Below, piece after piece: positions 13,968 through 54,477 of a DNA stretch of 64,000 nucleotides. The position numbers were made by a program, and so were the translations under genes. The stretch's first letter is position 1; the number at the start of each line of letters is the position of its first letter. This stretch comes from Actinomycetota bacterium (GTDB lineage Bacteria > Actinomycetota > UBA4738 > HRBIN12), in contig DATBIS010000005.1 in the NCBI GenBank assembly GCA_036556805.1, positions 7,782 to 71,781 of the forward strand, given 5' to 3'. Under the pieces are notes generated by a model that worked only from the letters and a program-made list of their open reading frames with translations, searched no databases and was not told the DNA's origin.

Positions 13968-13971
<4 letters not shown>
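12865..13971 (+). CDS. Sensor histidine kinase (PAS plus HisKA_3 plus HATPase_c), no cognate response regulator adjacent
   Basis: PAS-like block (VYVDDPDE...WIDKIHPDD...YRMVTRDEHVVWIRD), H-box ERRRIAADIHDDSIQ and a C-terminal ATPase domain. GTG 12865 overlaps the M20 stop (GTGA). Confidence 0.85.
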
Positions 13972-15149
<1,178 letters not shown>

Positions 15150-15150
15150 G

Positions 15151-16176
15151 TCAGGACTCCTTCCGGGTTCGCAGAGTGTGGGCGGACATCCGACGGTCGG
15201 TCAACCCAGATCGAGCGCGTCGGTGAGCCGCAGGCGCCGCGCCGCGTCGGTCCAGCCCGAGCAGCGCCGAGCCGAGCACCGGTGGGGCATCGAGCACGAG
15301 CGTCCGTGATCGAGGCGCGACGGCCAGCATGCCCTCTCGGATCCGCTCGAAGAACTCGTGGTCGTCGTTGCGGAAGATGCCGCCCCCCAGGACGACGTCG
15401 ACGTCGAGCTTCGTCATGTGAAGCCGCCTGATCGCGGCGCCCGCCATCGCGACGACCTCGTCGGCCTGATGGTCGACGATGCTCCGCGCGACGGCGTCCC
15501 CGTCCTTCGCCGCCTCGAACACGACGGGGGCGAGCTCGACGATGCGCTCGCCGTCGATCCGATCGAGGTGCATGGCCTCCACGACCTGGCGCGGACGACG
15601 CAGCCCGAAGAACGCGGGGATGAGGCGGCGCAGGGTCGTGGGGTCGCCCCGCCCGTCCTCGGCGCGAATCGCGTACCAGAGTCCCGCGCCGCCCACGTCG
15701 CCGCCGCCGCCCCAGTCCCCCGAGATCAGGCCGACCGCGGGGAAGCGGAAGACCCGGCCGTTCGGAGCCACCGCCGAGCAGTTCGTGCCGTAACCGCACA
15801 CCACCCCCACGCCCCATGGGCGATCGGTGCCGGCTCGCAGGACCGCGAAGGTGTCGTTGCGGACGACGTCCTCCGACGTGAGGCCCTGCGCGCCCAGCCA
15901 CTTCGCGATGCGTCGGTCGTCGGAGGGGAGGTCGGCGCCGGCGAGGCAGTAGACGCCGACGTCGGCGACGGGGAGCCGGGCAGGGTCGAGGCCGGCGTCG
16001 GCACAGGCCGCGCGCGCCGCCTCCATCACGAAGCCCAGGTGGTCGGGGCTGCCGGTCCCGTTGTGGTCCGAGCCGAGACGCCGAGCGGCTCCCACGACCG
16101 TGCCGTCGGCCCGCAGCAGGGCGGCGTCCACCTTGGAGCCTCCGGCGTCGACCGCGAGGAGTGCGGGTCGCCTCAC
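15151..16176 (-). CDS. BadF/BadG/BcrA/BcrD-type ATPase (N-acetylglucosamine-kinase-like sugar kinase), copy 1
   Basis: N-terminal LAVDAGGSK phosphate-1 motif and GGGD/GGGI ASKHA-fold motifs. GTG start overlaps the CE4 stop (GTGA). Confidence 0.8.
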   Translation of the reverse strand: MRRPALLAVDAGGSKVDAALLRADGTVVGAARRLGSDHNGTGSPDHLGFVMEAARAACADAGLDPARLPVADVGVYCLAGADLPSDDRRIAKWLGAQGLTSEDVVRNDTFAVLRAGTDRPWGVGVVCGYGTNCSAVAPNGRVFRFPAVGLISGDWGGGGDVGGAGLWYAIRAEDGRGDPTTLRRLIPAFFGLRRPRQVVEAMHLDRIDGERIVELAPVVFEAAKDGDAVARSIVDHQADEVVAMAGAAIRRLHMTKLDVDVVLGGGIFRNDDHEFFERIREGMLAVAPRSRTLVLDAPPVLGSALLGLDRRGAAPAAHRRARSGLTDRRMSAHTLRTRKES

Positions 16177-16823
16177 GGGAGTGCCTCCTCGGGAAGCTCG
16201 TCGAGCCGGACGAATCGGAACCCGTCGGCGCGAAGCCCGTCCACGATCGGCGGGACGGCGCCGTGGGTCCCGTCCGGCCAGGTGTGGAGCAGCACGACGG
16301 CTCCGTCGCCGTGCGCACGCACGCCCTCGATCGCGTCACGGGAGATCGCGGCGGCGTCGCGCCACGGCTCCCAGTCCTCGAGCGCCACGTCCCAATGCAC
16401 GTCGCGATAGCCGAGCTCGGCAAGCGGGCCTTGGACTCGCTCGTCGCCGTGACCGTCGCCGAACGGGCACCGGAACCAGGGTTTCGGATCGGTGCCGATG
16501 ATGTCGTAGATCGCCTCTGCCGCCTCACGAACGTCGGTTCGCAGGCCCTCGTCGGTGAACAGCGTCATGCGCGCGTGGTACTTGGAGTGGTTGCCGACGA
16601 GATGTCCGTCGACGGCGATCCGGCGGGCGGTCTCCGGCTGGGATTCCGCCCACCGCCCCTGCACGAAGAAGGTTGCGGCGACCCCCCGTTCGGCGAGGTG
16701 ATCCAGGATGCGCTCGGCGTTCTCGCTCGAGCGCCACGGGCGATCCGGATGCTCCGCGTCGAACGTCAGCGCGACGCGAGGGGCGGTCGGGAATGGGTCA
16801 GGAAAGTTTCCTAACGATTTCAC
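16173..16823 (-). CDS. Polysaccharide deacetylase (NodB homology domain, CE4)
   Basis: ALTFDAEHP (TFDD-like motif 1), GNHSKYH (motif 2) and RCPFG (motif 3). GTG start at 16823. Codons 3-8 coincide with operator box 1. Confidence 0.85.
   Translation of the reverse strand: MKSLGNFPDPFPTAPRVALTFDAEHPDRPWRSSENAERILDHLAERGVAATFFVQGRWAESQPETARRIAVDGHLVGNHSKYHARMTLFTDEGLRTDVREAAEAIYDIIGTDPKPWFRCPFGDGHGDERVQGPLAELGYRDVHWDVALEDWEPWRDAAAISRDAIEGVRAHGDGAVVLLHTWPDGTHGAVPPIVDGLRADGFRFVRLDELPEEALP
16798..16814. promoter_or_regulatory. Operator box 1: TCAGGAAAGTTTCCTAA (palindrome AGGAAA-S-TTTCCT)
   Basis: One of three near-identical 17-bp palindromes in the window. It lies at the 5' end of the CE4 operon and over the -35 region of the divergent GH4 gene. 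Confidence 0.7.
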
Positions 16824-16849
16824 CGCCGGGAGTGTACGATGCGCGGGCC

Positions 16850-18115
16850 ATGGGTGTGAAGGTTGCCGTCGTCGGAGGCGGGAGCACCTACACCCCCGAG
16901 CTCGTCGAGGGGTTCGTGACCCGTGGCGACCGGCTCCCCGTGGACGAGCTCGTGCTGCTCGACGTCGACCCCGACCGCCTCGCGGTGGTAGGGGCTCTCG
17001 CCGAGCGCATGGTGCGGAAGGCCGGCTGGCCGGGAGCGATCCGGCTCACGCAGAGCCGGGACGAGGCGCTCGAGGGCGCTGACTTCGTGATCGTGCAGCT
17101 CCGGGTGGGCGGCCAGGCGGCGCGCCTCACGGACGAGACGATCCCACCGTCGTACGGCTGCATCGGCCAGGAGACGACCGGCCCGGGGGGCTTCGCGAAG
17201 GCGCTGCGGACGGTGCCCGTCGTGCTCGAGCTCGCGCGCGAGACCTCGCGCCTCGGCGCCCCGGGCGCGTGGTTCGTCGACTTCACGAACCCGACCGGGC
17301 TGGTCACACAGGCGCTGCTCGACGAGGGGCACCGGGCGATCGGCCTCTGCAACGTCGCGATCGGGTTCCAGCGCAGGTTCGCGGCGCATTTCGGCGTCGC
17401 GCCGGACCGGGTGCGACTCGACCACGTCGGCCTCAACCACCTCAGCTGGGAGCGGGCCGTGTTCGTGGAGGGCGTCGATCGCCTGGCGGAGCTGCTCGAG
17501 GCGGCCGCCGACCTGGTCGCCGACGAGGCCGATATGCCGGTGGAGCTGGTTCGCGCGCTCGGCGCGATCCCGAGCTCCTACCTGCACTACTACTACCTCA
17601 CCTCCGAGGTGCTCGAGCATCAGCGGTCGCATCCGTCGCGCGCCGAGGAGGTCATGAGGATCGAGGCCGAGCTGCTCGAGCTCTACCGGGACCCCGAGCT
17701 CGACGTGAAGCCGAAGCTGCTCGAGGAGCGCGGCGGCGCCTTCTACTCCGACGCGGCGGCCGCGCTCGTCGCCTCGCTCCACGCCGGCACCGGCGACGTC
17801 CAGGTCGTGAACGTCCGCAACGTCGGCGCGATCCCGAACCTCCCAGCGGACGACGTCGTGGAGGTTTCCGCGACGATCGACCGAGACGGCGCGCACCCGA
17901 TCGCGACCGCACCGCTCGCCCCCGAGATGCTCGGGCTCGTGCAGCACGCGAAGGCGTACGAGCTCCTCGCGATCGAGGCGGCGACGACCGGGAACCGCAC
18001 CACCGCGCTCAAGGCCCTCATGGCGAACCCGCTCGTGGGCGACTACCGCGTCGCGGCACCGCTGCTCGACGCGCTGCTCGACGCGAACCGCGAGCTGCTG
18101 CCGCAGTTCGCCTGA
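16850..18115 (+). CDS. GH4 NAD/Mn-dependent glycosidase (6-phospho-beta-glucosidase-like, CelF/ChbF type)
   Basis: N-terminal KVAVVGGGSTYTPELVEGF Rossmann signature of family 4 glycoside hydrolases. 421 aa. TACGAT hexamer ends 9 nt upstream of the ATG. Confidence 0.9.
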   Translation: MGVKVAVVGGGSTYTPELVEGFVTRGDRLPVDELVLLDVDPDRLAVVGALAERMVRKAGWPGAIRLTQSRDEALEGADFVIVQLRVGGQAARLTDETIPPSYGCIGQETTGPGGFAKALRTVPVVLELARETSRLGAPGAWFVDFTNPTGLVTQALLDEGHRAIGLCNVAIGFQRRFAAHFGVAPDRVRLDHVGLNHLSWERAVFVEGVDRLAELLEAAADLVADEADMPVELVRALGAIPSSYLHYYYLTSEVLEHQRSHPSRAEEVMRIEAELLELYRDPELDVKPKLLEERGGAFYSDAAAALVASLHAGTGDVQVVNVRNVGAIPNLPADDVVEVSATIDRDGAHPIATAPLAPEMLGLVQHAKAYELLAIEAATTGNRTTALKALMANPLVGDYRVAAPLLDALLDANRELLPQFA

Positions 18116-18127
18116 CCCGGCGGACCG

Positions 18128-19363
18128 TCAGCCCTCCGGCAGCTCCGACGCGTGGCGCTGGATCTTCGCGAGGGCCTCGACCGCGTCCTGGACCCCGGCG
18201 TTCCCGTCCCGGAAGACGTTCTCCATGAAGTACACCGACTCGCGAAGGCCCGCGGCCTCGGCGACGGGGAACGACATCGATGCGGGGTCGAGCCGGTCGG
18301 CGAACTCGACGGCCACGGGGAGCCGGGAGAGCGACGGCTGGAACAGCTCGTATCGGCTCATCGGTGGGTACTGGACCTCCGCGGGGATCCCCTCGGCCTC
18401 CATCGCCGCGCAGACGACCTCGTTGGTTCGGCCGGCGAAGGCGTCGGGGTCGATCGCGATGAGGTAGTTGTAGAAGCTCCACCGCGTGATGCGCTCGTCG
18501 GCGGGCATCACGCGAACCCCGGGAACCTCGGCGACGAGCCGTTCGAACGCCTTGCCGGCGACCGCGCGCTCCTCTTGCTGTGCGGGGAACCGTCGCATCG
18601 CCACGACGAGGAGCGCGGCGTGCAGCTCGCTCAGGCGGTAGTTCGCGCCGAACGTGACCTCTTTCTCGTCGGGATCCTTCGGGCGGCCGCAGTCGATGAT
18701 CGAGTGTGCGCGCCTCGCGAGCGCCTCGTCGTTCGTGAGCAGCGAACCGCCCTCGCCGGCGGTGAGGATCTTCGAGGATTGGTGGCTGAAGGACCCGAAG
18801 CTCCCGATGCAGCCCGCGCCGCGGCCGCGCCACTGCTGGCCGTGCGCGTGCGCGCAGTCCTCGACGATCGCGAGGCCGTGGCGCTCGGCGATCTCGGTGA
18901 GGCGATCCATGTCCGCCATCTGGTGGCCGAGGTGCACGGGCAGGATCGCCTTCGTCCGCGGCGTGATCGCGCCTTCGACGAGGTCGGGGTCGATCGTCCA
19001 CGTGCGTGGCTCGACGTCCACGATGACGGGAAGCGCGCCGGCGGCCATCGGCGCGTACGCCGTCGCGCTGAACGTGAGCGCGGGGATGACGACCTCGTCG
19101 CCCCAGCCGATGTCGAGCGCCTTGAGCGCCACCTCCATCGTCACGGTGCCGTTCATCATCAGCACGCCGTGACGGGCACCCTGGTAGGCCGCGAACGCTT
19201 CCTCGAACGCGGCACCGTTGCGGCCGGGCTCCGGGAACCCGCCCCATGCACCGCTCCGCACGACCTCGCCGACCGCCGCGACGTACTCGTCGTCGGGCGA
19301 AGGCCACGCCGGGTACGGGGTGCCGCGAACGGGCGCCCCGCCGTTGATCGCGAGCTCCGCCAT
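18128..19363 (-). CDS. DegT/DnrJ/EryC1/StrS-family PLP aminotransferase
   Basis: Family blocks (MMNGTVTMEVALKAL, VIPALTFSAT, ILPVHLGHQMADM, SFSHQSSKILTAGEGG with the PLP lysine). ATG 19363 is preceded by GGAAGGAG. Confidence 0.85.
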   Translation of the reverse strand: MAELAINGGAPVRGTPYPAWPSPDDEYVAAVGEVVRSGAWGGFPEPGRNGAAFEEAFAAYQGARHGVLMMNGTVTMEVALKALDIGWGDEVVIPALTFSATAYAPMAAGALPVIVDVEPRTWTIDPDLVEGAITPRTKAILPVHLGHQMADMDRLTEIAERHGLAIVEDCAHAHGQQWRGRGAGCIGSFGSFSHQSSKILTAGEGGSLLTNDEALARRAHSIIDCGRPKDPDEKEVTFGANYRLSELHAALLVVAMRRFPAQQEERAVAGKAFERLVAEVPGVRVMPADERITRWSFYNYLIAIDPDAFAGRTNEVVCAAMEAEGIPAEVQYPPMSRYELFQPSLSRLPVAVEFADRLDPASMSFPVAEAAGLRESVYFMENVFRDGNAGVQDAVEALAKIQRHASELPEG

Positions 19364-19457
19364 CGTCACACGCTCCTTCCGTCGGGCCGCGGTCGCGGCC
19401 TTGGTAGTGTCCACCACGTGGGGGCCTCGTGACGAGGATCGAGCCGGAGGAGCCGCG

Positions 19458-20732
19458 CTGATCCTCGACCTCACGCCGGCACACGACGTCAGGATCGACG
19501 CGGGGACGAAGGGTTTTCCGGCGCTCACCGGATCGGTTCGCGCGGTGGACGTCGCCGCGGCGGGCTGGTCGCTCCCTCGCGACCTGCGCGCGCCGGTGAT
19601 GACCCTGCGCGCGACGGCGCTCGACCACAACCTCGCGCTCATGGCGTCGTTCTGTCGCAACCACGACGTGGACCTCGTTCCGCACGGTAAGACGACGATG
19701 GCGCCGCAGCTCTGGGACCGACAGCTCGAGGCGGGGGCCTGGGGGATCACGGCCGCCACCGTCGCGCAGGCGGCAGTCATGCGCTCGGTGAGGGTGCCGC
19801 GGATCCTGCTCGCGAACGAGCTCGTGGACGGCCCCTCGATCGACTGGGTCGCAGCACAGCTCGGAGACCCGGACTTCGACTTCGTGTGCTACGTGGACTC
19901 GCTGCGCGGCGTCGCGATCCTCGAGGAGCGCTTGGGCGCGGCCGGCGCGCCGAGGCCGCTGGGCGTGCTCGTCGAGATCGGCCACGAGGGCGGCCGCACG
20001 GGTTGCCGGACGGTGGACGCCGCGCTCGAGGTCGCGGGGGCGGTCGCGGCGAGCAAGCGTCTCGAGCTCGCCGGCGCCGCAGGCTACGAGGGGACGATCG
20101 GCGAGGGTCGCTCCCTCGACGCGATGACGGCCGTGAGCGCGTTCGTCGATCGGCTCGGCGAACTCGCGAGGGGCCTGCTCGAACGCGGCGCGGTCCGCGA
20201 CGGAGCGATCGTGAGCGCGGGTGGCAGCGTGTTCTTCGACGTCGTCGCCGACCGGCTGCGTGAGGCGCTTCCCGAGGGATCCGGCGCGCGCATCGCGTTG
20301 CGATCGGGCTGCTACCTCACGCACGACCACGGGACGTACGAGCGCAACTCGCCGTTCTCCGGACGCGCGGATCCCGCGCTGCGATTCCATCCCGCGATCG
20401 AGCTCTGGGGGAGGGTGCTCTCCCGACCCGAGCCGTCGCTCGCGCTGCTCGGCTTCGGGCGGCGCGACGCCCCCTTCGACACCGGGATGCCTGTGCCCCT
20501 GTCGATCCACTCGCCGTCGGGCGATCCGACACGGGCCGCGCGCGGGATCGAGGTGGAGCGCCTGAACGACCAGCACGCGTTCTGCCGAGTCGACCCGAAG
20601 ACGCCGCTCGAGGTCGGAGAGCTCGTGGCGTGCGGGATCTCGCACCCGTGCACGGCGTTCGACAAATGGCGCGTGCTGCCGGTCGTCGACGACCACCTGC
20701 GCGTGGTCGACGCCGTCGCGACGTTCTTCTAG
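19458..20732 (+). CDS. D-serine-dehydratase-like PLP enzyme (alanine racemase N-terminal fold, DSD1 type 'amino acid deaminase')
   Basis: PHGKTTMAP (PLP-lysine motif) and C-terminal GISHPCTAFDKW block. GGAGGAG (19446-19452) plus a 5-nt spacer precedes in-frame CTG 19458. The alternative canonical GTG at 19407 has no SD. Confidence 0.75.
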   Translation: MILDLTPAHDVRIDAGTKGFPALTGSVRAVDVAAAGWSLPRDLRAPVMTLRATALDHNLALMASFCRNHDVDLVPHGKTTMAPQLWDRQLEAGAWGITAATVAQAAVMRSVRVPRILLANELVDGPSIDWVAAQLGDPDFDFVCYVDSLRGVAILEERLGAAGAPRPLGVLVEIGHEGGRTGCRTVDAALEVAGAVAASKRLELAGAAGYEGTIGEGRSLDAMTAVSAFVDRLGELARGLLERGAVRDGAIVSAGGSVFFDVVADRLREALPEGSGARIALRSGCYLTHDHGTYERNSPFSGRADPALRFHPAIELWGRVLSRPEPSLALLGFGRRDAPFDTGMPVPLSIHSPSGDPTRAARGIEVERLNDQHAFCRVDPKTPLEVGELVACGISHPCTAFDKWRVLPVVDDHLRVVDAVATFF

Positions 20733-21616
20733 CGTTTCGGGAAGCCCTCGGTGTCGCCCACGGTCGTGGCGACCGCCGCACCGCACCGCGCGCCCTCGGC
20801 GAGCGCTGTCGCCGGGTCCGCGCCCGAGAGACGGGCGGCGAGATAGCCGGCGTTGAACGCGTCGCCGGCGCCGACGGGGTCGACGTCCGCGCGAGGCTCG
20901 CCCTCGAGCTCGTGCCAGCCGCCGCGCTCGTCGAGCGCGGCGGCGCCCCGAGGCCCGCGCTTCACCACCACCTCACGGGGACCGCTCGCGCGGCAACGCC
21001 GCGCGAGCTCCTCCGCCGAACCCGGCCCCACGAGCGCGGCGAGCTCCCGCTCGCCCGCCAGCACCAGCGTGGCGCGTTCGACCAACGGAAGCACGAGCTC
21101 GGGCGCGCGATCCGAACCCCAGAGCCCCGCCCGGAGGTTCGGATCGACCGCGCGGACGCCGCCGGCGCGTTCGAGCAGCGAGATCGCCGCACGCCCCGGA
21201 CCGTCGCCGATCAGCGCCGTGATGCCGGTCACGAGCACGGCGCGGGCGTCCTCGACCGGCACACCGTCCAGATCCTTGGGCGACAGCGCGCTCGCGGCCG
21301 ACGCCAAGCGGTAGTAGACGACCGCGCCGGTCGTGTCGCGGAGCATGAGGCCGGTCGGGCGGCCCGGGTCCCGCGTCACCCAGCGGACGTCGACGCCCTC
21401 GCGCTCGAGCGCGGCGGCCACGCGTTCGCCCGGGACGTCGGCGCCCAGCCTGCTCACCCAGGCCGTACGCAATCCCAAGCGGGCGAAGCCGACGCACGCA
21501 TTGCTCTCCGCGCCGCCGTGCGTCACGTGAAGCGAGCCGGCGCCCGCGAGCGTTCCCTCGGCGACGAGCGAGAGCATCGTCTCGCCGACCGCGACGAGGT
21601 CGAAGCGCGCGCTCAC
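20729..21616 (-). CDS. kdgK: PfkB-family sugar kinase, 2-dehydro-3-deoxygluconokinase-like
   Basis: GGAESN and C-terminal DPVGAGDAFNAGY PfkB signatures. GTG start overlaps the eda stop (GTGA). Confidence 0.8.
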   Translation of the reverse strand: MSARFDLVAVGETMLSLVAEGTLAGAGSLHVTHGGAESNACVGFARLGLRTAWVSRLGADVPGERVAAALEREGVDVRWVTRDPGRPTGLMLRDTTGAVVYYRLASAASALSPKDLDGVPVEDARAVLVTGITALIGDGPGRAAISLLERAGGVRAVDPNLRAGLWGSDRAPELVLPLVERATLVLAGERELAALVGPGSAEELARRCRASGPREVVVKRGPRGAAALDERGGWHELEGEPRADVDPVGAGDAFNAGYLAARLSGADPATALAEGARCGAAVATTVGDTEGFPKR

Positions 21617-22227
21617 GGCGAGGCGGCGACGCGCGCGACGGCGGCGGCGCGCGCCGCGACGCGCTTCAGCTCGCCGTCTCCGTGCGGCGGCGTCCGGCCC
21701 ACCAGCTCGCCGCCCAGCCCCACGCAGGTGGCCCCGGCCTCGAGGTAGCCCTGCACCTCCTTGATCGCGATGCCTCCCGTCGGCACGAACGGCGTCGTGG
21801 GGAACGGTCCGCGCAACGCGCGCACGTATGCGGGGCCTCCCGTCGAGGCGGGGAAGAGCTTCACGGCCTTCACGCCCAGCGCGAGCGCCCGGAGGATCTC
21901 GGTGGCGGTGAACGCGCCGGCGATCGGCTCCAGCCCGCGGTCCAGCGCCTCGGCGATCACCTCGTCGACGGTTCCGGGGGTCACGACGAACCGGGCTCCG
22001 GCGTCGGCGCAGGCGCGCACCTGCTCGGCGGTGACCACGGTGCCCACGCCGACCGTTCGCCCCTTCGCGGCCGACCTCTCGACCGCATCGAGGGCGCCCG
22101 GGGTGTCGATCGTGACCTCGGAAAGACCGATCCCGCCCGCGTCGAGCGCATCGAGGGTCGCTTCGACGTCCCCCTCGGAACGGAACCGAACGATCGCGAG
22201 CACGCGGGACGATTCGATCACCGACAT
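21613..22227 (-). CDS. eda: KDPG/KHG aldolase
   Basis: Typical Eda length (204 aa) and blocks (VLAIVR, GIGLSEVT, GAGTV-like GVGTVV, KLFPA with the Schiff-base lysine, PTGGI). Confidence 0.85.
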   Translation of the reverse strand: MSVIESSRVLAIVRFRSEGDVEATLDALDAGGIGLSEVTIDTPGALDAVERSAAKGRTVGVGTVVTAEQVRACADAGARFVVTPGTVDEVIAEALDRGLEPIAGAFTATEILRALALGVKAVKLFPASTGGPAYVRALRGPFPTTPFVPTGGIAIKEVQGYLEAGATCVGLGGELVGRTPPHGDGELKRVAARAAAVARVAASP

Positions 22228-22281
22228 CGCGCGCTCCCTTGACCCGGGCGGACGGCCCAGCGTAGCATCGCGCGAGTTCAG

Positions 22282-22298
22282 TTAGGAAACTTTCCTAT
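22282..22298. promoter_or_regulatory. Operator box 2: TTAGGAAACTTTCCTAT
   Basis: Second copy of the palindrome, in the eda / ROK divergent intergenic region. It starts 14 nt after a TAGCAT hexamer (22263-22268) and ends 8 nt before the SD GGGAGGG (22307-22313). Confidence 0.7.
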
Positions 22299-22383
22299 CA
22301 CGGATCGGGAGGGTGCGACGCCGACGGAACAGACGTTCGCCGCGGGGACGCCCAGCCTCCTTCGCGCGATCAACGAGCGGACC

Positions 22384-23523
22384 GTGCTCGAGTTCATCCG
22401 GCAGGTCGGTCCCGTCTCCCGCGCGCAGATCGCGAGGGACTCCGGACTCTCGAAGCCGACGGTCTCGCAGGCGCTCTCGGCGCTCGCGCGCGCGAAGCTC
22501 GTGCGCGAGGCCGGGCGATCGTCGGGCGGGAAGGGGCCCACCGCCGTGCTCTACGAGCTGAACCCGAGGGCCGGATGGGTGGTGGGCATCGACGTGGGCC
22601 GCGACCGCGTGCGCGCGGCGATCGCCGACCTCACCGGGGACTTCATCGCTCGCCGCGACGAGCGGGCGCGGGTGCGGAGCGCGGACACCCTCCTCGAGCA
22701 GATCGGAGAGATCTCCCACGGCCTCGCGGCCGAGGCGGGCATCCGCTGGCGGCAGGTCACCTCGGCGGCCGTCGCGAGCCCCGGAGTCCTGGAGCCCGCC
22801 CGAGGCAAGGTCTCGCTCGCTCACAACCTGCCGGGATGGGGGCGCCTCGGCCTCGTGGAGGCGCTGCGGAAGGAGCTCGGCACGGCACTCACGTTCGAGA
22901 ACGACGTGAACCTCGCGACGGTGGGCGAGCAGTGGCGCGGCCTCGGCAAAGACGTGCAGAACTTCGTGTTCCTGCACGTCGGGACCGGGGTGGGGATGGG
23001 GTTGGTGGTAAACGGCCGCCTGTTCCGGGGCGCGCACGGTGCGGCCGGCGAGGTCGGGTACCTGCCGCTCGCGACCGCCGACCCGCACGATCCCGAGAAC
23101 CTGCGTCACGGCGCCCTCGAGGGGGCGGTGGGAGCGGCCGGCGTGGTGGAGCTCGCTCGCTCGCTCGGCATGGAGGCCCCACTCACGCCGAGGAAGATCT
23201 TCCACGCCGCGCGAAAGGGCGATCCCATCCCCCGGAAGGTGGTCGACCTGGTCGCGGACCGGATCGCGCTCGGGATCGCCGCCGTGGTCCCCGTGGTCGA
23301 TCCCGAGCTCGTGATCCTCGGGGGAGGGATCGGACAGAACGGTGACCTCCTGCTCGAGCGGATCGAGCGCGAGCTGCAGACGCTCTCGCCCTTCCACCCC
23401 AGGATCGAGATTTCGGCGCTGGGTGAAGACGCGGAGCTGAACGGGGCCGTCGCCACCGCACTTCAGGAGGCCCAGGACCAGTTGTTCGCCCGCGCCGACG
23501 CGCGGGGAGGCATCGCCGTATGA
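22384..23523 (+). CDS. ROK-family transcriptional repressor (NagC/CsnR-like); N-terminus probably extends to about 22318
   Basis: wHTH (VSRAQIARDSGLSKPTVSQAL) plus a ROK sugar-kinase-like domain. 22384 is the first canonical start, but the conserved helix LLRAINERT is encoded in-frame upstream (see findings). Confidence 0.85.
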   Translation: MLEFIRQVGPVSRAQIARDSGLSKPTVSQALSALARAKLVREAGRSSGGKGPTAVLYELNPRAGWVVGIDVGRDRVRAAIADLTGDFIARRDERARVRSADTLLEQIGEISHGLAAEAGIRWRQVTSAAVASPGVLEPARGKVSLAHNLPGWGRLGLVEALRKELGTALTFENDVNLATVGEQWRGLGKDVQNFVFLHVGTGVGMGLVVNGRLFRGAHGAAGEVGYLPLATADPHDPENLRHGALEGAVGAAGVVELARSLGMEAPLTPRKIFHAARKGDPIPRKVVDLVADRIALGIAAVVPVVDPELVILGGGIGQNGDLLLERIERELQTLSPFHPRIEISALGEDAELNGAVATALQEAQDQLFARADARGGIAV

Positions 23524-23588
23524 CCCCGGCCACGTACACCCAAGGAGACCGGCATCGTCCCCGCGATCGGGAGAGGGAGGAACGGCAC

Positions 23589-24941
23589 ATGAAGCGATTG
23601 TTGGTGTCGACGCTCGTGTTCGCGCTCGCCGTGACCGCGTGCACCGCGGGTGGCAACACCTCGACCCCCGCCACCATCAACCCGAGCGAGTCGCACGAAC
23701 CGGTGACCCTCGAGATCTGGGGCGCCTGGTCGGGCCGCGAGCTCAAGCAGTTCAACCAGATCTTCGACGGGTTCACCGCCCAGTACCCGTGGATCACGGT
23801 GAACAGCACGGGCAGTGTGGGAGACCAGAAGATCATCGCTGGCATCAACAGCGGCACGCCGCCGGACGTGGTGCTCTCGTTCACGCCCGACCGGGTCGGC
23901 GCGTTCTGCGCGACCGGCGGTTGGCAGGACCTGATGCCGTATATGGACCAAACGGGCTTCGATCTCAGCCAGATCCCGGAGGGGGCGCTCGCGTACACGA
24001 GCTACGGCGGCAGCCAGTGCGCGCTGCCGTTCCTCACGGACACGTACGGCCTGTACTACAACATCGACATGTTGGAGAAGGCGGGCATCTCGGATCCTCC
24101 GAAGACGCTCTCCGAGCTGCAGGCCGATGCGAAGAAGCTCACCGTCATCAACTCGAGCGGCGAGATCGAGGTCGCGGGGTTCGTGCCCTGGTTCGGGTAC
24201 TACGAGTTCAGCCCGTTGAACATGTCCATCATGTTCGATGCCCCCTGGTACAACGCCGACGGGACCCAGTCGGCGGTCGGGACGGACCCCGCCTGGCAAA
24301 CGATGTTCGAGTGGCAGAAGCAGTTCATCGCGGACGTGTACGGCGATGGTGACTTCGCGACGGGGGCCGACCGGCTCCAGCGCTTCGTCGCCGGTGCGGG
24401 CGAGGAGTTCTCGACGGCGCACGACATGTACACCGGCCGGATCGCGATGAACCTCGACGGCGAATGGCGCACGGCGTTCATCGCGGACGAGAAGCCCGAC
24501 ATGAACTACGGGACGGCGCCGCTGCCGACGCCCGACGACCTCGCGAGCAACTACGGCATGGGCCCGATGTACGGCACGATCATCGGCATGCCCAAGGGCT
24601 CCCCGCACCCCGCCGAGGCGTGGCTGCTGCTCCAGTACATGGCGACGGACACGGATACGCTCGTGTACATGGCGAACAACGTGCGGAACGTGCCGACGAC
24701 GCTCGCGTCGCTCGACTCGCCAGACCTGGACGTGACGCCGCAGTTTCAGACGTTCCTGGACATCTTCACGAACCCGCTGTCGCGGGACAAGGAGCCGACG
24801 GCGATCGGGTCCGCCGACCAGGAGACGGTCTCGAGCTTCGCCGAGAAGTGGCAGACGAACGCGGACTCGGACCTCGCCGGCGGACTGCAGCAAGCCGCCA
24901 CGCAGATCGACGACCAGCTCGCCCAGCAGCAGGGACCATAG
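23589..24941 (+). CDS. ABC transporter solute-binding lipoprotein (family 1, oligosaccharide type)
   Basis: ATG 23589 follows GGGAGAGGGAGG. Signal peptide with lipobox LAVTAC. SBP_bac_1-like blocks (LEIWGAW, AGINSGTPPDV). Confidence 0.85.
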   Translation: MKRLLVSTLVFALAVTACTAGGNTSTPATINPSESHEPVTLEIWGAWSGRELKQFNQIFDGFTAQYPWITVNSTGSVGDQKIIAGINSGTPPDVVLSFTPDRVGAFCATGGWQDLMPYMDQTGFDLSQIPEGALAYTSYGGSQCALPFLTDTYGLYYNIDMLEKAGISDPPKTLSELQADAKKLTVINSSGEIEVAGFVPWFGYYEFSPLNMSIMFDAPWYNADGTQSAVGTDPAWQTMFEWQKQFIADVYGDGDFATGADRLQRFVAGAGEEFSTAHDMYTGRIAMNLDGEWRTAFIADEKPDMNYGTAPLPTPDDLASNYGMGPMYGTIIGMPKGSPHPAEAWLLLQYMATDTDTLVYMANNVRNVPTTLASLDSPDLDVTPQFQTFLDIFTNPLSRDKEPTAIGSADQETVSSFAEKWQTNADSDLAGGLQQAATQIDDQLAQQQGP

Positions 24942-26857: not shown

Positions 26858-27814
26858 ATGTCGATCCGGGTCGCCCTGTTCGGGTGCGGGTGGATTCAGG
26901 ACTTCCACGCGCGCGGCGTGCGGGCGCACCCGGATGGCGAGCTCGTCGCGGTCGCGAACCACCGCGAGGAGACCGCGCACGCGTTCGCCGAACGACACGA
27001 GATCGAACGCGTGACGACGGACTGGCGGACGCTCGCCGCCGATCCCGCCGTGGACGCCGCGATCGTGGCGACGCCGAACGCCCTGCACGCACCCCAGGCC
27101 GTGGAGCTCCTGCGCGCCGGCAAGCACGTGCTGGTCGAGAAGCCGATGGCGACCTCGGTCGCCGAGTGCGACGCGATGATCCAGGCGGCCGCGGAGGGAT
27201 CGGCGTCGCTCATGGTCGCGCACTGCTGGCGCTTCCACGACGACGTCAGGGCTTTGGGGCGCCGGATCGAGGCCGGCGAGCTCGGCGAGATCGTGAAGAC
27301 CCGAGGGTACGGCGTGCACGTGGACTGGGGGCCCTCGGGATGGTTCGTCGATCGCGAGCTCGCGGGCGGCGGCGCACTCGTCGACATGGGGGTCCACGCG
27401 ATCGACACCGCGCGGTTCCTCCTGGGCGACCCGGTGCCGGAGCGGGTCTGCGCGGCGATCGGCACGCGCTACGCAGCCGGGCGGTACGAGGTCGACGACG
27501 ACGGGGTCGTGCTGATCACGTGGTCGAACGGGACGACCTCCCTCGTGGAGTGCGGGTGGTGGCAGCCGCACCGGGGCGGACCCGAGGCGGATACCGAGGT
27601 CTACGGCACGAGGGGCTACGATCGCGTCTGGCCCGCGGAGGCCCCCGCCGACGACGAGCTTGGGCTCCAGCCCATGTATTCGGCACAGGTGGGGGAGTTC
27701 CTCGACGCCGTCGGCGAGGGCCGGCGGCCGCGGCCTTCCGGCGAGGACGGGAGGATCGTGATGCAGGTGGTCGAGCGAGCGTATGCCTCCGCGCTCGAGG
27801 CGCACGCGACGTGA
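26858..27814 (+). CDS. Gfo/Idh/MocA-family NAD(P)-dependent oxidoreductase (or NAD-dependent glycosidase-like)
   Basis: N-terminal Rossmann VALFGCGWI and the EKP motif (VLVEKPMA). Confidence 0.85.
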   Translation: MSIRVALFGCGWIQDFHARGVRAHPDGELVAVANHREETAHAFAERHEIERVTTDWRTLAADPAVDAAIVATPNALHAPQAVELLRAGKHVLVEKPMATSVAECDAMIQAAAEGSASLMVAHCWRFHDDVRALGRRIEAGELGEIVKTRGYGVHVDWGPSGWFVDRELAGGGALVDMGVHAIDTARFLLGDPVPERVCAAIGTRYAAGRYEVDDDGVVLITWSNGTTSLVECGWWQPHRGGPEADTEVYGTRGYDRVWPAEAPADDELGLQPMYSAQVGEFLDAVGEGRRPRPSGEDGRIVMQVVERAYASALEAHAT

Positions 27815-28797
27815 GCGTCTTCCTCGGCGTCGACGGCGGTGGGACGAAGACGCACGCCGTGGTGGCGGACGGGGCTGGCACTCCCCTCGGGGTCGGCGTG
27901 AGCGGCGCGTCCAACTGGGAGGACGTGGGCCTGGACGGCGCCGTCGCCACGGTGGGCGCGGCGGTCGAGGAGGCCTTCGGGCAGGCGAACCTCGGCCCTT
28001 CGGATGCGACGGCGGCCGTCTTCGGCCTCGCCGGACTGGACTGGGAGAGCGATCGCCGGCGCCTCGCGATCGTCCCGGAGTCGCTCGGGCTTGCGTGCGA
28101 GTGGCTGACGGTGAACGACTCGTTCGTCGCGCTCCGCGCCGGCGCCAACCATCCGTGGGGGATCGTCGTGATCGCCGGCACCGGGGCCGTCGCCGCCGGC
28201 CGGGACCCCGATGGGCAGGAGTTTCGAACCCTCGGGCTCGGCCCGGTGTACGGCGACTACGGGAGCGCCTCGGAGATCGGAGAGGCGGCGATGCGCGCCG
28301 TGGCGGAGTGGTTCATCGGGCTCGGCGGCGCGACGGCGCTCACCGACGCCTTGTGCCTGCATGCTGGCGTCGACACCGCGCAAGAGCTCCTCGAACGCTA
28401 CAGCCGGAGCCAGGAGCCACTCGACCCGATCGCCCGCGTCGTGATGAAGGTCGCCGACGAGGGCGACCCGACTGCGAGGACCATCGCCGAGCGCGCCGGC
28501 GCCGGCCTGGGTGCTCGCGCGGCGCTCGTGGCGCGCAAGCTCTCGATGCAGCAGTTGCCCGTCGAGGTGGTGCTCGCAGGAGGAGTGTTCCGGAGCGCGA
28601 ACCGCGCGTTGATGGCCGCGTTCGAGATGGAGCTTCGCCGAACGGTGCCGCGCGCGGCGGTCTCGCGGCTGGAGGTCCCGCCGGTCGTCGGGGCCGTGCT
28701 GCGCGCGATGGAGCTCGTCGGCGTTGAGCCGCCCGGAGCCGTGCACCTGCACCTCTCGCTCGAGGTGATCAAGCACCTCGGCTACGAGTTCGCCTGA
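27811..28797 (+). CDS. BadF/BadG/BcrA/BcrD-type ATPase (N-acetylglucosamine-kinase-like sugar kinase), copy 2
   Basis: FLGVDGGGTKT phosphate-1 motif and AGTGAV, GGGVF motifs. GTG 27811 overlaps the upstream stop (GTGA). Only the last 328 codons of the 952-aa track ORF are credible. Confidence 0.8.
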   Translation: MSVFLGVDGGGTKTHAVVADGAGTPLGVGVSGASNWEDVGLDGAVATVGAAVEEAFGQANLGPSDATAAVFGLAGLDWESDRRRLAIVPESLGLACEWLTVNDSFVALRAGANHPWGIVVIAGTGAVAAGRDPDGQEFRTLGLGPVYGDYGSASEIGEAAMRAVAEWFIGLGGATALTDALCLHAGVDTAQELLERYSRSQEPLDPIARVVMKVADEGDPTARTIAERAGAGLGARAALVARKLSMQQLPVEVVLAGGVFRSANRALMAAFEMELRRTVPRAAVSRLEVPPVVGAVLRAMELVGVEPPGAVHLHLSLEVIKHLGYEFA

Positions 28798-51326: not shown

Positions 51327-52418
51327 ATGGTCGACGTCGCGAGGGTCGTGCTCGCGCTCGAGGAGCACGATGTCGCCGAGGAGGTGATGCACTTCCTCGA
51401 TCGAAGCGGCCGCTCGCGCGTCGTGGCGACGGCCACGGACGACCGGCAGCTCCTCGAGGCGGTGCGCCAGCTCGAGCCCGACGCCGTCGTGGCGCAGCCT
51501 TCTCTGCTGAACGGCGAGCACTTCGACCGCGCGGTCTTGGCCGTGGACACGCGGGAGTCGGTGGCGGGCCTCCGCGCGGCCATGCGGGCGGGCGCGCGCG
51601 GGTTCTTCGTCTGGCCGTCCGAGCGAGAGGCGCTCGCGACCGCGGCCGCCCGCACCGCGAGCGCCGGTCAGGTCTCCCACGCCCGCGCTCGGACGATCGC
51701 GGTGTTCGCGCCGCGCGGGGCCGGCGGCACGTTCGTCGCGACGCACCTCGCGGCGGCCGTCGCGCGCCGCACGCTGGACTGCCTGCTCGTCGATGCGGAT
51801 CCCCTCTTCGGCGACGTGACGGCCGCCCTGGGCGCCCTCGCGGCCGAAGGCGCGCCACCGCGGACGATCGGCGACCTGCTGCCGCTCGTCGAGGAGCTCG
51901 ACGAGTCGGCCGTTCGCGAGGCGGCCTGGGCCCACCCGGACGGGTTCCGCGCGTTGCTCGCTCCCGAAGGTCCCGGCGAGGCTTCGATGGAGGCGGCCGA
52001 GCTCCGGCGCGTGCTCGCGGCCGCCGCGACCGCGGCCGACGTCGTCGTCGTGCACCTTCCCCGGTCGCTCGACGATCTCGCGATCGCGGCGATCGAGTGG
52101 GCGGACCGCGTCGTGTTCGTGCTGAGCCTCGACGCGCTTTCGTTCCGTTCGGCGAAACGAGCGTGCGAGCGATTGCGTGGCGTCCAGGTGGAGTTCGTGG
52201 TGAATCGGGCCGCGCGTGCGGAGGTGACGCCCGGCGACGTCGTGCGCGTCTTCGGAAGGGAGCCACTCGCCGTGCTCCCGTTCGACCGCGCGGTCGCCCG
52301 CGCGCAGGACCACGGCTGTTTGGTGCCGCCGCGAAGCCGATTGGGACGGGCGGTCGATCGACTCGCCACGCGTCTGCTCGAGGAGGCGAACCGGACCCCA
52401 GCCGAGGAGCCGCGCTAG
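51327..52418 (+). CDS. TadZ/CpaE/Ssd-like protein (receiver-like N-domain plus MinD/ParA-fold with degenerate Walker A)
   Basis: ParA-fold block IAVFAPRGAGGTFVATHLA...LLVDADPLFGDV. The expected KGGxGK[ST] lysines are absent. ATG follows GGGGAGGGGAG. Confidence 0.7.
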   Translation: MVDVARVVLALEEHDVAEEVMHFLDRSGRSRVVATATDDRQLLEAVRQLEPDAVVAQPSLLNGEHFDRAVLAVDTRESVAGLRAAMRAGARGFFVWPSEREALATAAARTASAGQVSHARARTIAVFAPRGAGGTFVATHLAAAVARRTLDCLLVDADPLFGDVTAALGALAAEGAPPRTIGDLLPLVEELDESAVREAAWAHPDGFRALLAPEGPGEASMEAAELRRVLAAAATAADVVVVHLPRSLDDLAIAAIEWADRVVFVLSLDALSFRSAKRACERLRGVQVEFVVNRAARAEVTPGDVVRVFGREPLAVLPFDRAVARAQDHGCLVPPRSRLGRAVDRLATRLLEEANRTPAEEPR

Positions 52419-54391
52419 CGAATCCCCGCCATCTGCCGTGCGAATGCGAGTGGCGACGTCGCCGTGAGGTCGATCGCGGGCTCCACGGTCGAGAAGGACT
52501 CCACGTTGTCCCTGAATTTCGCGTCGTTCGAGAACGTCTCGAAAACGTCGACGCCGTCCGCGGGGCACGGACGCATGTGCGGCAACGATCCGTGGAAGAG
52601 CGTGCCGTTCGGGCCCTCGACGACGGCGCCCGCAAGGATGGGGGGCGTCCCGTCGAGCGAGCCGACGATGTTGGTGACCTGATGCTGAAGGCAGTGGGGA
52701 AACGTGGTGCCGGCGCCGACGATCAGCGAGGTACCCCACGCGTTGGCGCCGAGGATGTTCGCGAGCCAGCGCGCGCTCCAGTCCGCGTACTCGTCCGTGC
52801 CGGTGAGCTCGTCGTACTCGCTCGCCATCACGGAGAGGCCGGCGCCGTGCGAGGTCGTGTCCCACACGGCCCAGGGGAAGCCGAACTGGAACGGGTCGCG
52901 GCCCGCCTGCTCGATCGCACCGTCCAGCTGCCGTTTGAGATCGGCGAGCAGTGCCTCGCGCGTCGTCGCGAGCCCCTGGGGGTCGCCGGCCTCCTCGATC
53001 GCGCGGTAGAGGTCGTAATGCGCGAGACCGCTCACGTCGTACAGGTTCAACGTGTCGCCGCCGGTCCCTTCGATATACGCGTTCGCCCAGCGCGCGGCCT
53101 CTTCCAGGTAGAACGAAGGGTCTGGATGAGGGAGCCCCCGCGCGAGGTCGGTGTCCGCCGTCGCGAAGAAGAGCTCGACCGCGCCGAGCTCGAGGTCGGA
53201 GCGCCACTCGCGCTCGGGGTAGAAGCCGAACGGGATCACGGTGAGCAGCTTGTCCGGGTTGGTGTCCGCGAGGTCGTAGATGTGTTGGGCGGCCGTCAGA
53301 CATCGGTCGGCGAGCTCCGGATCGGAGGACCGGAACACGATCGAGCACAGGGCGAAGGCGGCGGCATCCCGCCCCGCGAGGTTCGGCGAGATCGGGGAGC
53401 CGGGAGGGCCGGCGCGGAACACCGGCCGGTCGCGAAGGTACCGGAACCGCGGGTCGTTGCCGTGCAGCTCGTCGTCGTCCTGGGGAAGCCGCCAGATGTC
53501 GTGGTCACCGACGACGGTCTCGTTCCCGGATCCGATCCCCACCTGGTAGTAGAGCGTGCGGGTCTTGTCGTTCCACAACCGAAGCAGGAACTCGACGCCG
53601 AACCTGACCTCCTCGGTGAAGTCGGCGGTTGCCGAGTCGCCGCCCATCTGTTCGGGGAAATCCCGAACGCCCGCAAGCAATACCGCGACGGTGTAGCTCG
53701 TGGTCTGCACGAACTTCACGTAATCACCGGCGTCCCACCACCCACCCGATGCGTCGATCCTCCGGCCGAGAGGCGAGAGCTCGCCCTCGAACTCGCCCGA
53801 CGGCCGGTACTCGGGCGTGAGATAGGTCATCGCGTTGGCGTCGTTGAGGTGCGCGGGGGCCGTGCGGAGGTCGGAGGGGATGTAGTCGGCCCCATCACGC
53901 TCGTTCTGGAAGAACGAGAGCGAGTTCGCGATCACGTCCCGGTACACGTTCGCCGCCGTGTCGATCGTGAACGGGGGGGAAGTTGCCGGCCCCGGCCCGA
54001 CGACCGTGATCGTGTACGAGCCCGGTTGCCGCACCCCGTCGAAGTCGATCGCGTACACGTGCGGGAAGGCGTCGTTCCACGACCCGAGTTCGGCACCGAT
54101 GGGTGCGCGTAGCTTCACTCGGCCGTCGTCGTCGACCAAGGTGAAGAGCGCACCGGCCTCGGGGACGTTCGCCATCACGTAGGCGCGCTTCGAGGCCTCG
54201 ATCGAGTAGCCGACCTGGTTGACGCGCACGAACGCGGTGCTGGCGGGGACGCTCGGGGGAGGCGAGGGAGCCGAGTTCGGCAACAGGGTGGAGGACGAGG
54301 GAGAGGAGGTGCAGGCTCCGGCGAGAAGTCCGACGAGAATCAGCGCGATCGGCGAGCGTCGATGGGCGGCAGCCGTCCGCGGTCCGTTCAA
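52415..54391 (-). CDS. GH9 glycoside hydrolase lipoprotein with N-terminal Ig-like (CelD_N-type) domain
   Basis: GH9 signature GGWWDAGDYVKF and DHDIWRLPQDD block. Ig-like VNQVGYS domain. TTG 54391 gives signal peptide MNGPRTAAAHRRSPIALILVGLLAGAC. The track start TTG 54457 would place the operator inside the coding region. Confidence 0.8.
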   Translation of the reverse strand: MNGPRTAAAHRRSPIALILVGLLAGACTSSPSSSTLLPNSAPSPPPSVPASTAFVRVNQVGYSIEASKRAYVMANVPEAGALFTLVDDDGRVKLRAPIGAELGSWNDAFPHVYAIDFDGVRQPGSYTITVVGPGPATSPPFTIDTAANVYRDVIANSLSFFQNERDGADYIPSDLRTAPAHLNDANAMTYLTPEYRPSGEFEGELSPLGRRIDASGGWWDAGDYVKFVQTTSYTVAVLLAGVRDFPEQMGGDSATADFTEEVRFGVEFLLRLWNDKTRTLYYQVGIGSGNETVVGDHDIWRLPQDDDELHGNDPRFRYLRDRPVFRAGPPGSPISPNLAGRDAAAFALCSIVFRSSDPELADRCLTAAQHIYDLADTNPDKLLTVIPFGFYPEREWRSDLELGAVELFFATADTDLARGLPHPDPSFYLEEAARWANAYIEGTGGDTLNLYDVSGLAHYDLYRAIEEAGDPQGLATTREALLADLKRQLDGAIEQAGRDPFQFGFPWAVWDTTSHGAGLSVMASEYDELTGTDEYADWSARWLANILGANAWGTSLIVGAGTTFPHCLQHQVTNIVGSLDGTPPILAGAVVEGPNGTLFHGSLPHMRPCPADGVDVFETFSNDAKFRDNVESFSTVEPAIDLTATSPLAFARQMAGIR

Positions 54392-54392
54392 A

Positions 54393-54409
54393 ATAGGAAA
54401 CTTTCCTAA
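54393..54409. promoter_or_regulatory. Operator box 3: ATAGGAAACTTTCCTAA
   Basis: Third copy of the palindrome. On the minus strand it lies between a TACGAT hexamer (54433-54428) and the TTG start at 54391. Its AGGAAAG half could double as the SD. Confidence 0.7.
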
Positions 54410-54477
54410 CTTTCTTTGGTCGGCGGCATCGTAGCGCCGCGCCGGAATCGCGGTCAAGCGGCTGCTACCGTCCCTGC

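Follow-up and report, generated by a model that had tools for sequence, protein, structure and literature searches.

Three probable CsnR-type operators and a ROK repressor in an uncultured soil actinobacterial lineage: a predicted regulon for chitosan and glucosamine oligomer use

The stretch of DNA analysed here, 64,000 nucleotides from contig DATBIS010000005.1 of an Actinomycetota bacterium (the window), carries three copies of one palindrome, AGGAAA-S-TTTCCT, each close to a promoter-like sequence, and one of them lies directly upstream of a gene for a regulator of the ROK family. This arrangement raises the question of which protein reads the palindromes and which pathway they control. An earlier reading, made from the sequence alone, had proposed that they are operators of the ROK regulator and had linked them to CsnR, the chitosanase repressor of Streptomyces. 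Our analysis indicates that the three palindromes are very probably CsnR-type operators, bound by the ROK repressor encoded at 22318-23523 and controlling the use of chitosan and glucosamine (GlcN) oligomers. Since the sites match the published CsnR box and the gene set is the published regulon in rearranged form, this is a system already known in Streptomyces: the described CsnR box and CsnR regulon, found in an uncultured soil actinobacterial lineage and with some new targets. The additions to it are modest, namely a GH9 gene as a conserved target, a box within the first codons of a probably leaderless gene, and an apparent ACG start of the repressor gene.

The three 17-bp sites (boxes 1-3, Table 1) were found as exact matches at the positions given by the sequence-only reading, all with the shared 13-bp core that it had described. 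The core AGGAAASTTTCCT occurred three times in the window, against 0.00 expected, being found in none of 100 dinucleotide-preserving shuffles; the G+C content of the window is 70.5%. When copies of a 15-mer with up to three mismatches were sought in the window, only the three known sites were returned (0.06 expected). A scan of the 64 kb for weaker copies, using a position matrix derived from 134 related sites, gave 30-38 bits for the three sites and less than 8 bits for all other positions. The sites are therefore a real, non-random and closed set within the window, and chance or a repeat element as their source was ruled out by the shuffles and by the conservation described below. Box 1 overlaps codons 4-9 of the leftward gene, box 2 lies 55 nt upstream of the start codon of the divergent eda gene, and box 3, 31 kb away, lies 69 nt upstream of a divergent MOSC gene.

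The operator of actinobacterial chitosanase genes has the consensus AGGAAANTTTCCT, in which positions 5 and 9 weigh most (review of actinobacterial chitinolysis, PMC6097792). All three window sites match this consensus exactly, and A5 and T9, the reported key determinants of binding, are present in each of them. In Streptomyces lividans, the ROK protein CsnR binds the csnA box and the box of csnR itself, with (GlcN)2 as the best effector; csnR heads the csnREFGHK cluster, which encodes an ATP-binding cassette (ABC) transporter, a GH4 hydrolase and a sugar kinase, and both the cluster and the box are conserved across many actinomycete genomes (PMC6097792). The CsnR binding site of S. lividans csnA, in the form quoted in PMC4856308, is CCTCTTCTGGTAGGAAACTTTCCTATCAGT, and window positions 22283-22300, which hold box 2, are identical to this quoted site at 18 of 18 bases. 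The csnN106 operator, TTAGGAAACTTTCCTAA, overlaps the transcription start; a delta-csnR strain no longer gives its gel shift (PMC3048496). The flanks of the window boxes also agree with those of the csnN106 and csnA operators.

The CsnR operator that the sequence-only reading had named, of the type GGAAA-N-TTTCC, was thus right, and the comparison with the published box gave an exact match. The same reading had spoken of one regulatory code in a different lineage with different target genes. The difference in lineage stands, as an extension of a box that was already known in many actinomycetes. The claim of different targets survives in part only: the ROK regulator, ABC transporter, GH4 hydrolase and kinase are a rearranged csnREFGHK, to which the CE4, GH9 and GFO genes, and possibly eda-kdgK, are added.

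Conservation of the boxes was examined in 80 ROK loci (1.29 Mb) obtained from a scan of one genome per species, all of them uncultured metagenome-assembled genomes (MAGs). Nearly all of these loci are labelled Actinomycetota, Actinomycetes or Actinobacteria, and the identity of their ROK proteins is 63-78%. The exact core GGAAANTTTCC occurred 134 times, against a composition-based chance estimate of about 0.2. The synteny map placed the exact-core copies without exception in 5' regions, at two fixed places, the gap between the CE4 operon and GH4 and the region directly 5' of ROK, and the clade has only C or G as the central base of the core. A softer matrix detected a site 5' of ROK in every one of the 76 loci whose upstream DNA was long enough, and 5' of GH4 in 59 of 60, so that the conservation extends over about 76 species-level genomes; nine of the 146 sites lay elsewhere, mostly before other operons such as that of a second ABC transporter.

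A box directly 5' of the ROK gene in all 76 loci is the classic signature of autoregulation, and it extends to the relatives what had been pointed out for box 2 from the sequence alone. It speaks against another transcription factor as the protein that binds the palindromes, with the ROK gene nearby only incidentally. Such a reading can appeal to the fact that both the binding of the boxes by the ROK protein and its orthology to CsnR are inferred here, but Streptomyces CsnR, itself a ROK protein, binds this very sequence. Moreover, three loci labelled Dormiibacterota or Chloroflexi (L069, L073 and L079) change box positions 6 and 8 together with the recognition helix of the ROK protein. They carry a variant operator, TAAGGAATTCTTCCTAA, about 30 nt 5' of the ROK start; the variant box, AGGAATTCTTCCT, keeps the AGGAA-N3-TTCCT spacing as well as A5 and T9 and differs at positions 6 and 8. 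In these loci the recognition helix is SKPTVSL(A/T)L, compared with SKPTVSQAL in the others, which gives a small hint that regulator and operator may co-vary. We consider it very improbable that a different factor is responsible, and take the ROK repressor as the likely reader of the boxes.

Additional high-scoring boxes were observed in six relatives (L001 5977, L002 5852, L050 5928, L019 6803, L045 1615 and L049 1505). Because these extra boxes precede a second ABC-transporter operon or sit between CE4 and MsiK, the size of the regulon varies among species.

All promoters and start sites given here are predictions. A scan with the sigma-70 consensus identified exactly one sigma-70-like promoter in each of the three box regions, against 0.0 expected, and recovered the -10 hexamers TACACT, TAGCAT and TACGAT on the strands that had been named for them. 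The sequence-only reading had also described the boxes as lying a few nucleotides downstream of these hexamers, which was not borne out: the gap between the -10 hexamer and the 17-mer is 16 nt (CE4), 13 nt (ROK) and 18 nt (GH9), and the first base of each box therefore falls at about +7 to +12 of its predicted transcript. In box-anchored alignments of about 70 relatives, TTGAC, TAGCAT and the box are held at constant spacing with variable spacer sequences, and the GH9 orthologue loci display a similar arrangement of -35, -10 and box. This position fits that of a repressor which would block RNA polymerase, and together with the near-universal conservation of the box in relatives it supports the earlier proposal of repressor operators. 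A candidate -10 hexamer for the divergent GH4 gene, invariant among relatives, was read from the sequence; the promoter scan did not call a GH4 promoter and gave no -35 hexamer match there. Box 1 would cover the -35 region of this putative promoter.

Lying 3' of the -10 hexamer, all three boxes should be part of the transcript and could in principle act in the RNA, as a 5'-terminal hairpin affecting mRNA stability or translation. Box 1 with its flanks indeed folds at -12.4 kcal/mol (z = -3.4), but boxes 2 and 3 fold like shuffled sequence (z about -1), and on this comparison with shuffles the hairpin or terminator reading was rejected. Variants among the GH9 orthologues, such as TTAAGAAGGTTTCCTAA, break the pairing and are uncompensated; because half-sites vary in this way without compensation, recognition of DNA by a protein is favoured over RNA pairing. 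The same sequence is also a proven protein-binding site, and the palindrome reads alike on both divergent transcripts only as DNA. An RNA-level element is thus extremely improbable.

From the Streptomyces work we infer binding, effector, transcription starts and enzyme substrates, and on this analogy the following mechanism can be proposed. A ROK dimer would bind each AGGAAA-S-TTTCCT box through its N-terminal winged helix-turn-helix (HTH), and, as the boxes span roughly +7 to +28 of the predicted transcripts, the bound repressor would block RNA polymerase at the three promoters. It would repress its own operon, which comprises ROK, a sugar-binding protein, two permeases, a GFO oxidoreductase and a BadF-type kinase. 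From box 1 it would repress the operon of the CE4 deacetylase, a BadF-type kinase and MsiK and, via the same box, the divergent GH4 gene; the GH9 lipoprotein gene would be repressed via box 3, and eda-kdgK might be affected via box 2. The inducer, by analogy with Streptomyces CsnR, would be GlcN oligomers derived from extracellular chitosan and imported by the ABC transporter. On binding to the sugar domain of the repressor, these oligomers would cause its release from DNA, and the genes for uptake and breakdown would be turned on.

Less probably, the boxes serve this ROK repressor as operators in a pathway with another effector, such as cello-oligosaccharides, chitin oligomers that are partly acetylated, or a different amino sugar. 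Cellulases make up the bulk of family GH9, and the window enzyme, with its CelD_N domain, has endoglucanases as its best matches in the PDB (distant, E about 1e-16) and matches a cellobiosidase model of NCBIfam. The CE4 deacetylase and the NagK-like kinase hint at acetylated substrates, and the set of GFO, DegT aminotransferase and D-serine-dehydratase-like, KdgK and Eda proteins is foreign to the Streptomyces csn cluster. The operator, however, is identical to the one bound by the GlcN-oligomer-responsive CsnR, and both family and context link GH4 to csnH and the ABC transporter to csnEFG. The CE4 operon of relatives is headed by a SIS protein, interpreted as similar to a glucosamine 6-phosphate (GlcN-6-P) deaminase, and exo-beta-glucosaminidase activity is proven for some GH9 enzymes (PMC6096475). 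In our view, another effector or pathway is therefore unlikely, and GlcN oligomers remain the preferred inducer.

Several observations do weigh against a chitosan-responsive CsnR system. The first is the resemblance of the GH9 enzyme to endoglucanases, its chitosan substrate being suggested by the regulon alone. Secondly, no GH46, GH75, GH5 or GH2 chitosanase gene was detected among the window open reading frames (ORFs) scanned against Pfam, the remaining ORFs of that scan belonging to unrelated families or giving no match. Thirdly, the window ROK protein contains no cysteine, and the same holds for 10 of 11 aligned relatives. ROK proteins usually carry a cysteine-based zinc-binding motif; as the window protein has no cysteine, this usual motif is absent, and the Pfam assignment to ROK is unaffected. 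Finally, the ROK matches found with tblastn in Streptomycetaceae of the plasmid collection reached only 47-49% identity and had neither an upstream box nor synteny. The ROK genes of Embleya and Streptomyces sp. N50 were accordingly rejected as CsnR orthologues, as they lack both the upstream box and csnEFG neighbours.

Box 3 precedes the GH9 lipoprotein gene, a putative target outside the families GH46, GH75, GH5 and GH2 of the published secreted targets. The GH9 reading frame has TTG as its sole start, 2 nt past box 3 and without a Shine-Dalgarno leader (window 54389-54409), whereas its orthologues have an untranslated region of 30-90 nt after the box, a clear Shine-Dalgarno sequence and an ATG. 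For the comparison, 80 orthologue loci from soil metagenomes were used, 65 of which could be evaluated for an upstream core. The exact core was present 5' of GH9 in 7 of these 65, a count that had pointed to box 3 as lineage-specific. This interpretation was dropped after the softer matrix identified one degenerate box (for example TTAGGAAGGTTTCCTAT or TTAAGAAGGTTTCCTAA) just 5' of GH9 in about 46 of the 65 loci, and no box-like site elsewhere in the 457 kb of GH9 loci. Given a box-like site 5' of GH9 in 46 orthologue loci, GH9 appears to be a conserved member of the regulon. GH9 is not among the published CsnR targets, and actinobacterial GH9 glucosaminidases are undocumented (review, PMC6097792). 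If true, this arm of the regulon would be the first case of a GH9 enzyme from actinobacteria with chitosan or glucosamine oligomers as substrate.

The start of the repressor gene is a second point at which the locus adds to the known system. No in-frame ATG, GTG or TTG exists 5' of the conserved and clearly translated first helix (window 22243-22384), and the database annotation starts the gene at a GTG at 22384, which cuts into the winged HTH. An ACG is located at 22318-22320, 4 nt past the Shine-Dalgarno sequence GGGAGGG (22307-22313). This start position is occupied by ACG in 68 of the 80 loci, 2-8 nt after a Shine-Dalgarno sequence, and never by ACC, whereas the usage of the threonine codons ACG and ACC elsewhere in these genes is about 1:1. 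Fifty of the 80 loci have no canonical in-frame start whatever, and many have an in-frame stop just past the box. Independent assemblies confirmed the sequence. L163 matches the window over 3143 nt with 100% identity, and L164 (SRR11614242) has a 1-nt insertion (TTTCCTATT) directly after box 2, relative to window position 22299. Since an independent assembly carries this insertion, the stretch between box and ACG is non-coding. The repressor gene thus appears to start at the conserved ACG; a literature search gave no directly relevant report of ACG used naturally as a start codon in bacteria. If true, the ACG would build weak translation into the autoregulatory loop. The ROK gene also offers a natural setting in which a non-canonical ACG start can be tested cleanly. 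That both additions hold together, the conserved ACG start for the repressor and the GH9 lipoprotein as the extracellular arm of the regulon, is a tentative proposition to which we give somewhat less than an even chance.

The control region between CE4 and GH4 is a nearly invariant block of 60 bp across relatives. Box 1 is invariant as TCAGGAAAsTTTCCTAA in 56 related loci, and the promoter-region block AGTGTACGATG and the GH4 start ATGGGTGTGAAGGT are likewise invariant. The leftward gene opens with (G/A)TG AAA TCG TTA GGA AAs TTT CCT GAC, encoding V/M-K-S-L-G-N/K-F-P-D (minus strand, window 16790-16823), with GTG or ATG as start codon depending on the relative. Because the -10 hexamer ends 7 nt 5' of this start codon, the leftward mRNA is probably leaderless. 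In most relatives the leftward gene encodes a 345-residue SIS-domain protein (L005 4179-5228), which we interpret as GlcN-6-P deaminase-like. In the window, a deletion has removed the SIS gene and left its first 11 codons (VKSLGNFPDPF) joined in frame to CE4; no SIS homologue was found anywhere in the window. The gene order MsiK-BadF-CE4 is conserved in relatives.

Genes were called from the G+C content at third codon positions together with Pfam and NCBIfam scans, and the identities given earlier to the CE4, GH4, ROK and GH9 genes were matched by Pfam (Table 1). An annotated protein from the MAG of an unclassified Actinomycetota bacterium has 100% identity to the window ROK protein, and the winged-HTH region of the window protein is invariant in the aligned relatives. 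Downstream, the true start of the solute-binding protein may be an internal ATG near 23589, and the GTG start of the second BadF-type kinase overlaps the stop codon of the GFO gene (GTGA). An ORF at 27783-28727 was rejected as a gene, having no Pfam match; the real gene is this kinase, in another frame. On the other side of box 2, Eda and PfkB genes adjoin the box and ROK in about 18 related loci, and the eda-kdgK pair is a possible additional target of box 2.

Within or beside the regulon (window 18128-22227 and 26858-27814) we also observed genes for a DegT-type sugar aminotransferase, a D-serine-dehydratase-like pyridoxal phosphate enzyme, PfkB, KDPG aldolase and GFO, and subsets of the DegT, pyridoxal phosphate enzyme, PfkB, aldolase and GFO genes recur between GH4 and ROK in relatives. 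As a speculation, this set could give an oxidative or deaminating route from glucosamine to 2-keto-3-deoxygluconate and its 6-phosphate (KDPG). A separate observation concerns Streptomyces sp. N50, in which a degenerate box-like sequence, TTAGTAAAGCTTCCTAA, lies just 3' of a 47%-identical ROK paralogue (L161 10195-10211, in a 1.47-Mb record). The wider ROK subfamily may use similar operators.

Table 1. Operators, genes and predicted promoters of the putative regulon (window coordinates).
Feature	Position	Strand	Sequence or context	Basis or score
CsnR box 1	16798-16814 (core 16800-16812)		TCAGGAAAGTTTCCTAA; divergent CE4/GH4 control region	matrix score 38 bits
CsnR box 2	22282-22298		TTAGGAAACTTTCCTAT; predicted autoregulatory operator of the ROK operon	matrix score 35 bits
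CsnR box 3	54393-54409		ATAGGAAACTTTCCTAA; directly 5' of the GH9 lipoprotein gene	matrix score 30 bits
ROK-family repressor, csnR-like	22318..23523	+	N-terminal winged HTH	Pfam ROK 5.7e-48 and HTH families, alignment
Sugar ABC solute-binding protein, csnE-like	23520..24941	+	follows ROK in most relatives	Pfam SBP_bac_1
Two ABC permeases, csnF/csnG-like	25047-25952 and ~25859/25985-26848	+	second start uncertain	Pfam BPD_transp_1, synteny
GFO/IDH/MocA oxidoreductase	26858..27814	+	after permeases in most relatives	Pfam
Second BadF/BadG-type sugar kinase, csnK-like position	27811..28797	+	BadF after GFO	Pfam, synteny
KDPG aldolase (eda)	21613-22227	-	divergent from ROK	Pfam
PfkB sugar kinase (kdgK)	20729-21616	-	divergent from ROK	Pfam
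CE4 polysaccharide deacetylase	16173..16823	-		Pfam
BadF/BadG-type sugar kinase	15151-16176	-	downstream in CE4 operon	Pfam and NCBIfam
MsiK/MalK-type ABC ATPase	13968-15149	-	downstream in CE4 operon	Pfam and NCBIfam
GH4 glycoside hydrolase, csnH-like	16850..18115	+	divergent from CE4	Pfam Glyco_hydro_4 and 4C
GH9 lipoprotein	52415..54391	-	GH9 catalytic and CelD_N Ig-like domains, lipoprotein-type signal peptide	Pfam
Predicted CE4-operon promoter	16831..16860	-	-35 TTCACA (16860-16855), 18-nt spacer, -10 TACACT (16836-16831)	sigma-70 scan
Predicted ROK-operon promoter	22239..22268	+	TTGACC-18-TAGCAT	sigma-70 scan
Predicted GH9 promoter	54428..54457	-	TTGACC-18-TACGAT	sigma-70 scan
Candidate GH4 -10 hexamer	16835..16840	+	TACGAT, ends 9 nt 5' of ATG	read from sequence

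The understanding of how the CsnR system works is unchanged by this finding, and the ACG start and the GH9 gene are its parts of most experimental worth. The locus further provides candidate enzymes for the turnover of glucosamine polymers in soil, namely the GH9 lipoprotein, GH4, the CE4 deacetylase, the BadF-type kinases and the GFO oxidoreductase.

Among known regulators, NagC and Mlc of Escherichia coli resemble the window protein in having a ROK sugar-binding domain behind a winged HTH, and they are likewise sugar-responsive repressors of transport and catabolism. Mlc is controlled by sequestration to EIICB of the phosphotransferase system (PTS). The regulator models of NCBIfam to which the window ROK protein matched were those of NagC and Mlc, with E values of about 1e-22 to 1e-36 that lie far under the equivalog cut-offs, and Mlc and other ROK regulators are found among its PDB relatives. 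They differ from it in operator sequence, and the window protein, without cysteine, has no zinc site. Streptomyces DasR with its dre site is another actinobacterial regulon for an amino-sugar polymer, also built from a repressor and a palindromic operator; it differs in that DasR belongs to the GntR family rather than ROK, its operator is another one, and the two regulons are normally kept separate (PMC6097792).

The GH9 arm finds its closest parallel in the GH9 exo-beta-D-glucosaminidases of Vibrionaceae (VC0615, PBPRA0520 and VP2484), which combine GH9 with an N-terminal Ig/Fn3-like domain and are tied to a pathway for the utilisation of glucosamine oligomers (PMC6096475). The Vibrio enzymes were not among the PDB matches of the window GH9 at E <= 1e-10. 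They have been proposed to act intracellularly on PTS-imported GlcN-GlcN-6-P (Hunt et al. 2008, as cited in PMC6096475), whereas the window enzyme has a lipoprotein-type signal peptide.

The nearest known system is that of CsnR itself, in Streptomyces lividans and coelicolor (SSPG_04872/SCO2657) and, with csnN106, in Kitasatospora sp. N106, all of which have the same 13-bp operator AGGAAANTTTCCT. Common to these and to the window are, as far as the sequence allows it to be judged, a ROK repressor whose N-terminus holds an HTH and whose gene is preceded by a box and heads an ABC-transporter operon, GH4 and a sugar kinase in the regulon, and a separate secreted glycoside hydrolase with a box of its own. 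The box of csnN106 overlaps its transcription start; those of the window are located just past the predicted one. The differences lie mostly in arrangement. In the window, GH4 and one kinase are outside the ROK operon, at a second, divergent operator 4-6 kb away that also serves CE4 and MsiK (and the SIS gene in relatives); the ROK operon has a GFO oxidoreductase after the permeases; the secreted enzyme is GH9 and not GH46, GH75, GH5 or GH2; and box 1 lies inside coding sequence. The host also differs: it comes from a lineage of soil Actinomycetota that is uncultured and represented by MAGs alone. The repressor and operator code of Streptomyces CsnR thus appears to be used, with hardly a letter changed, by a large group of soil actinobacteria not yet in culture, and because the code is kept in these organisms, the 13-bp motif alone can predict chitosan-responsive genes in MAGs.

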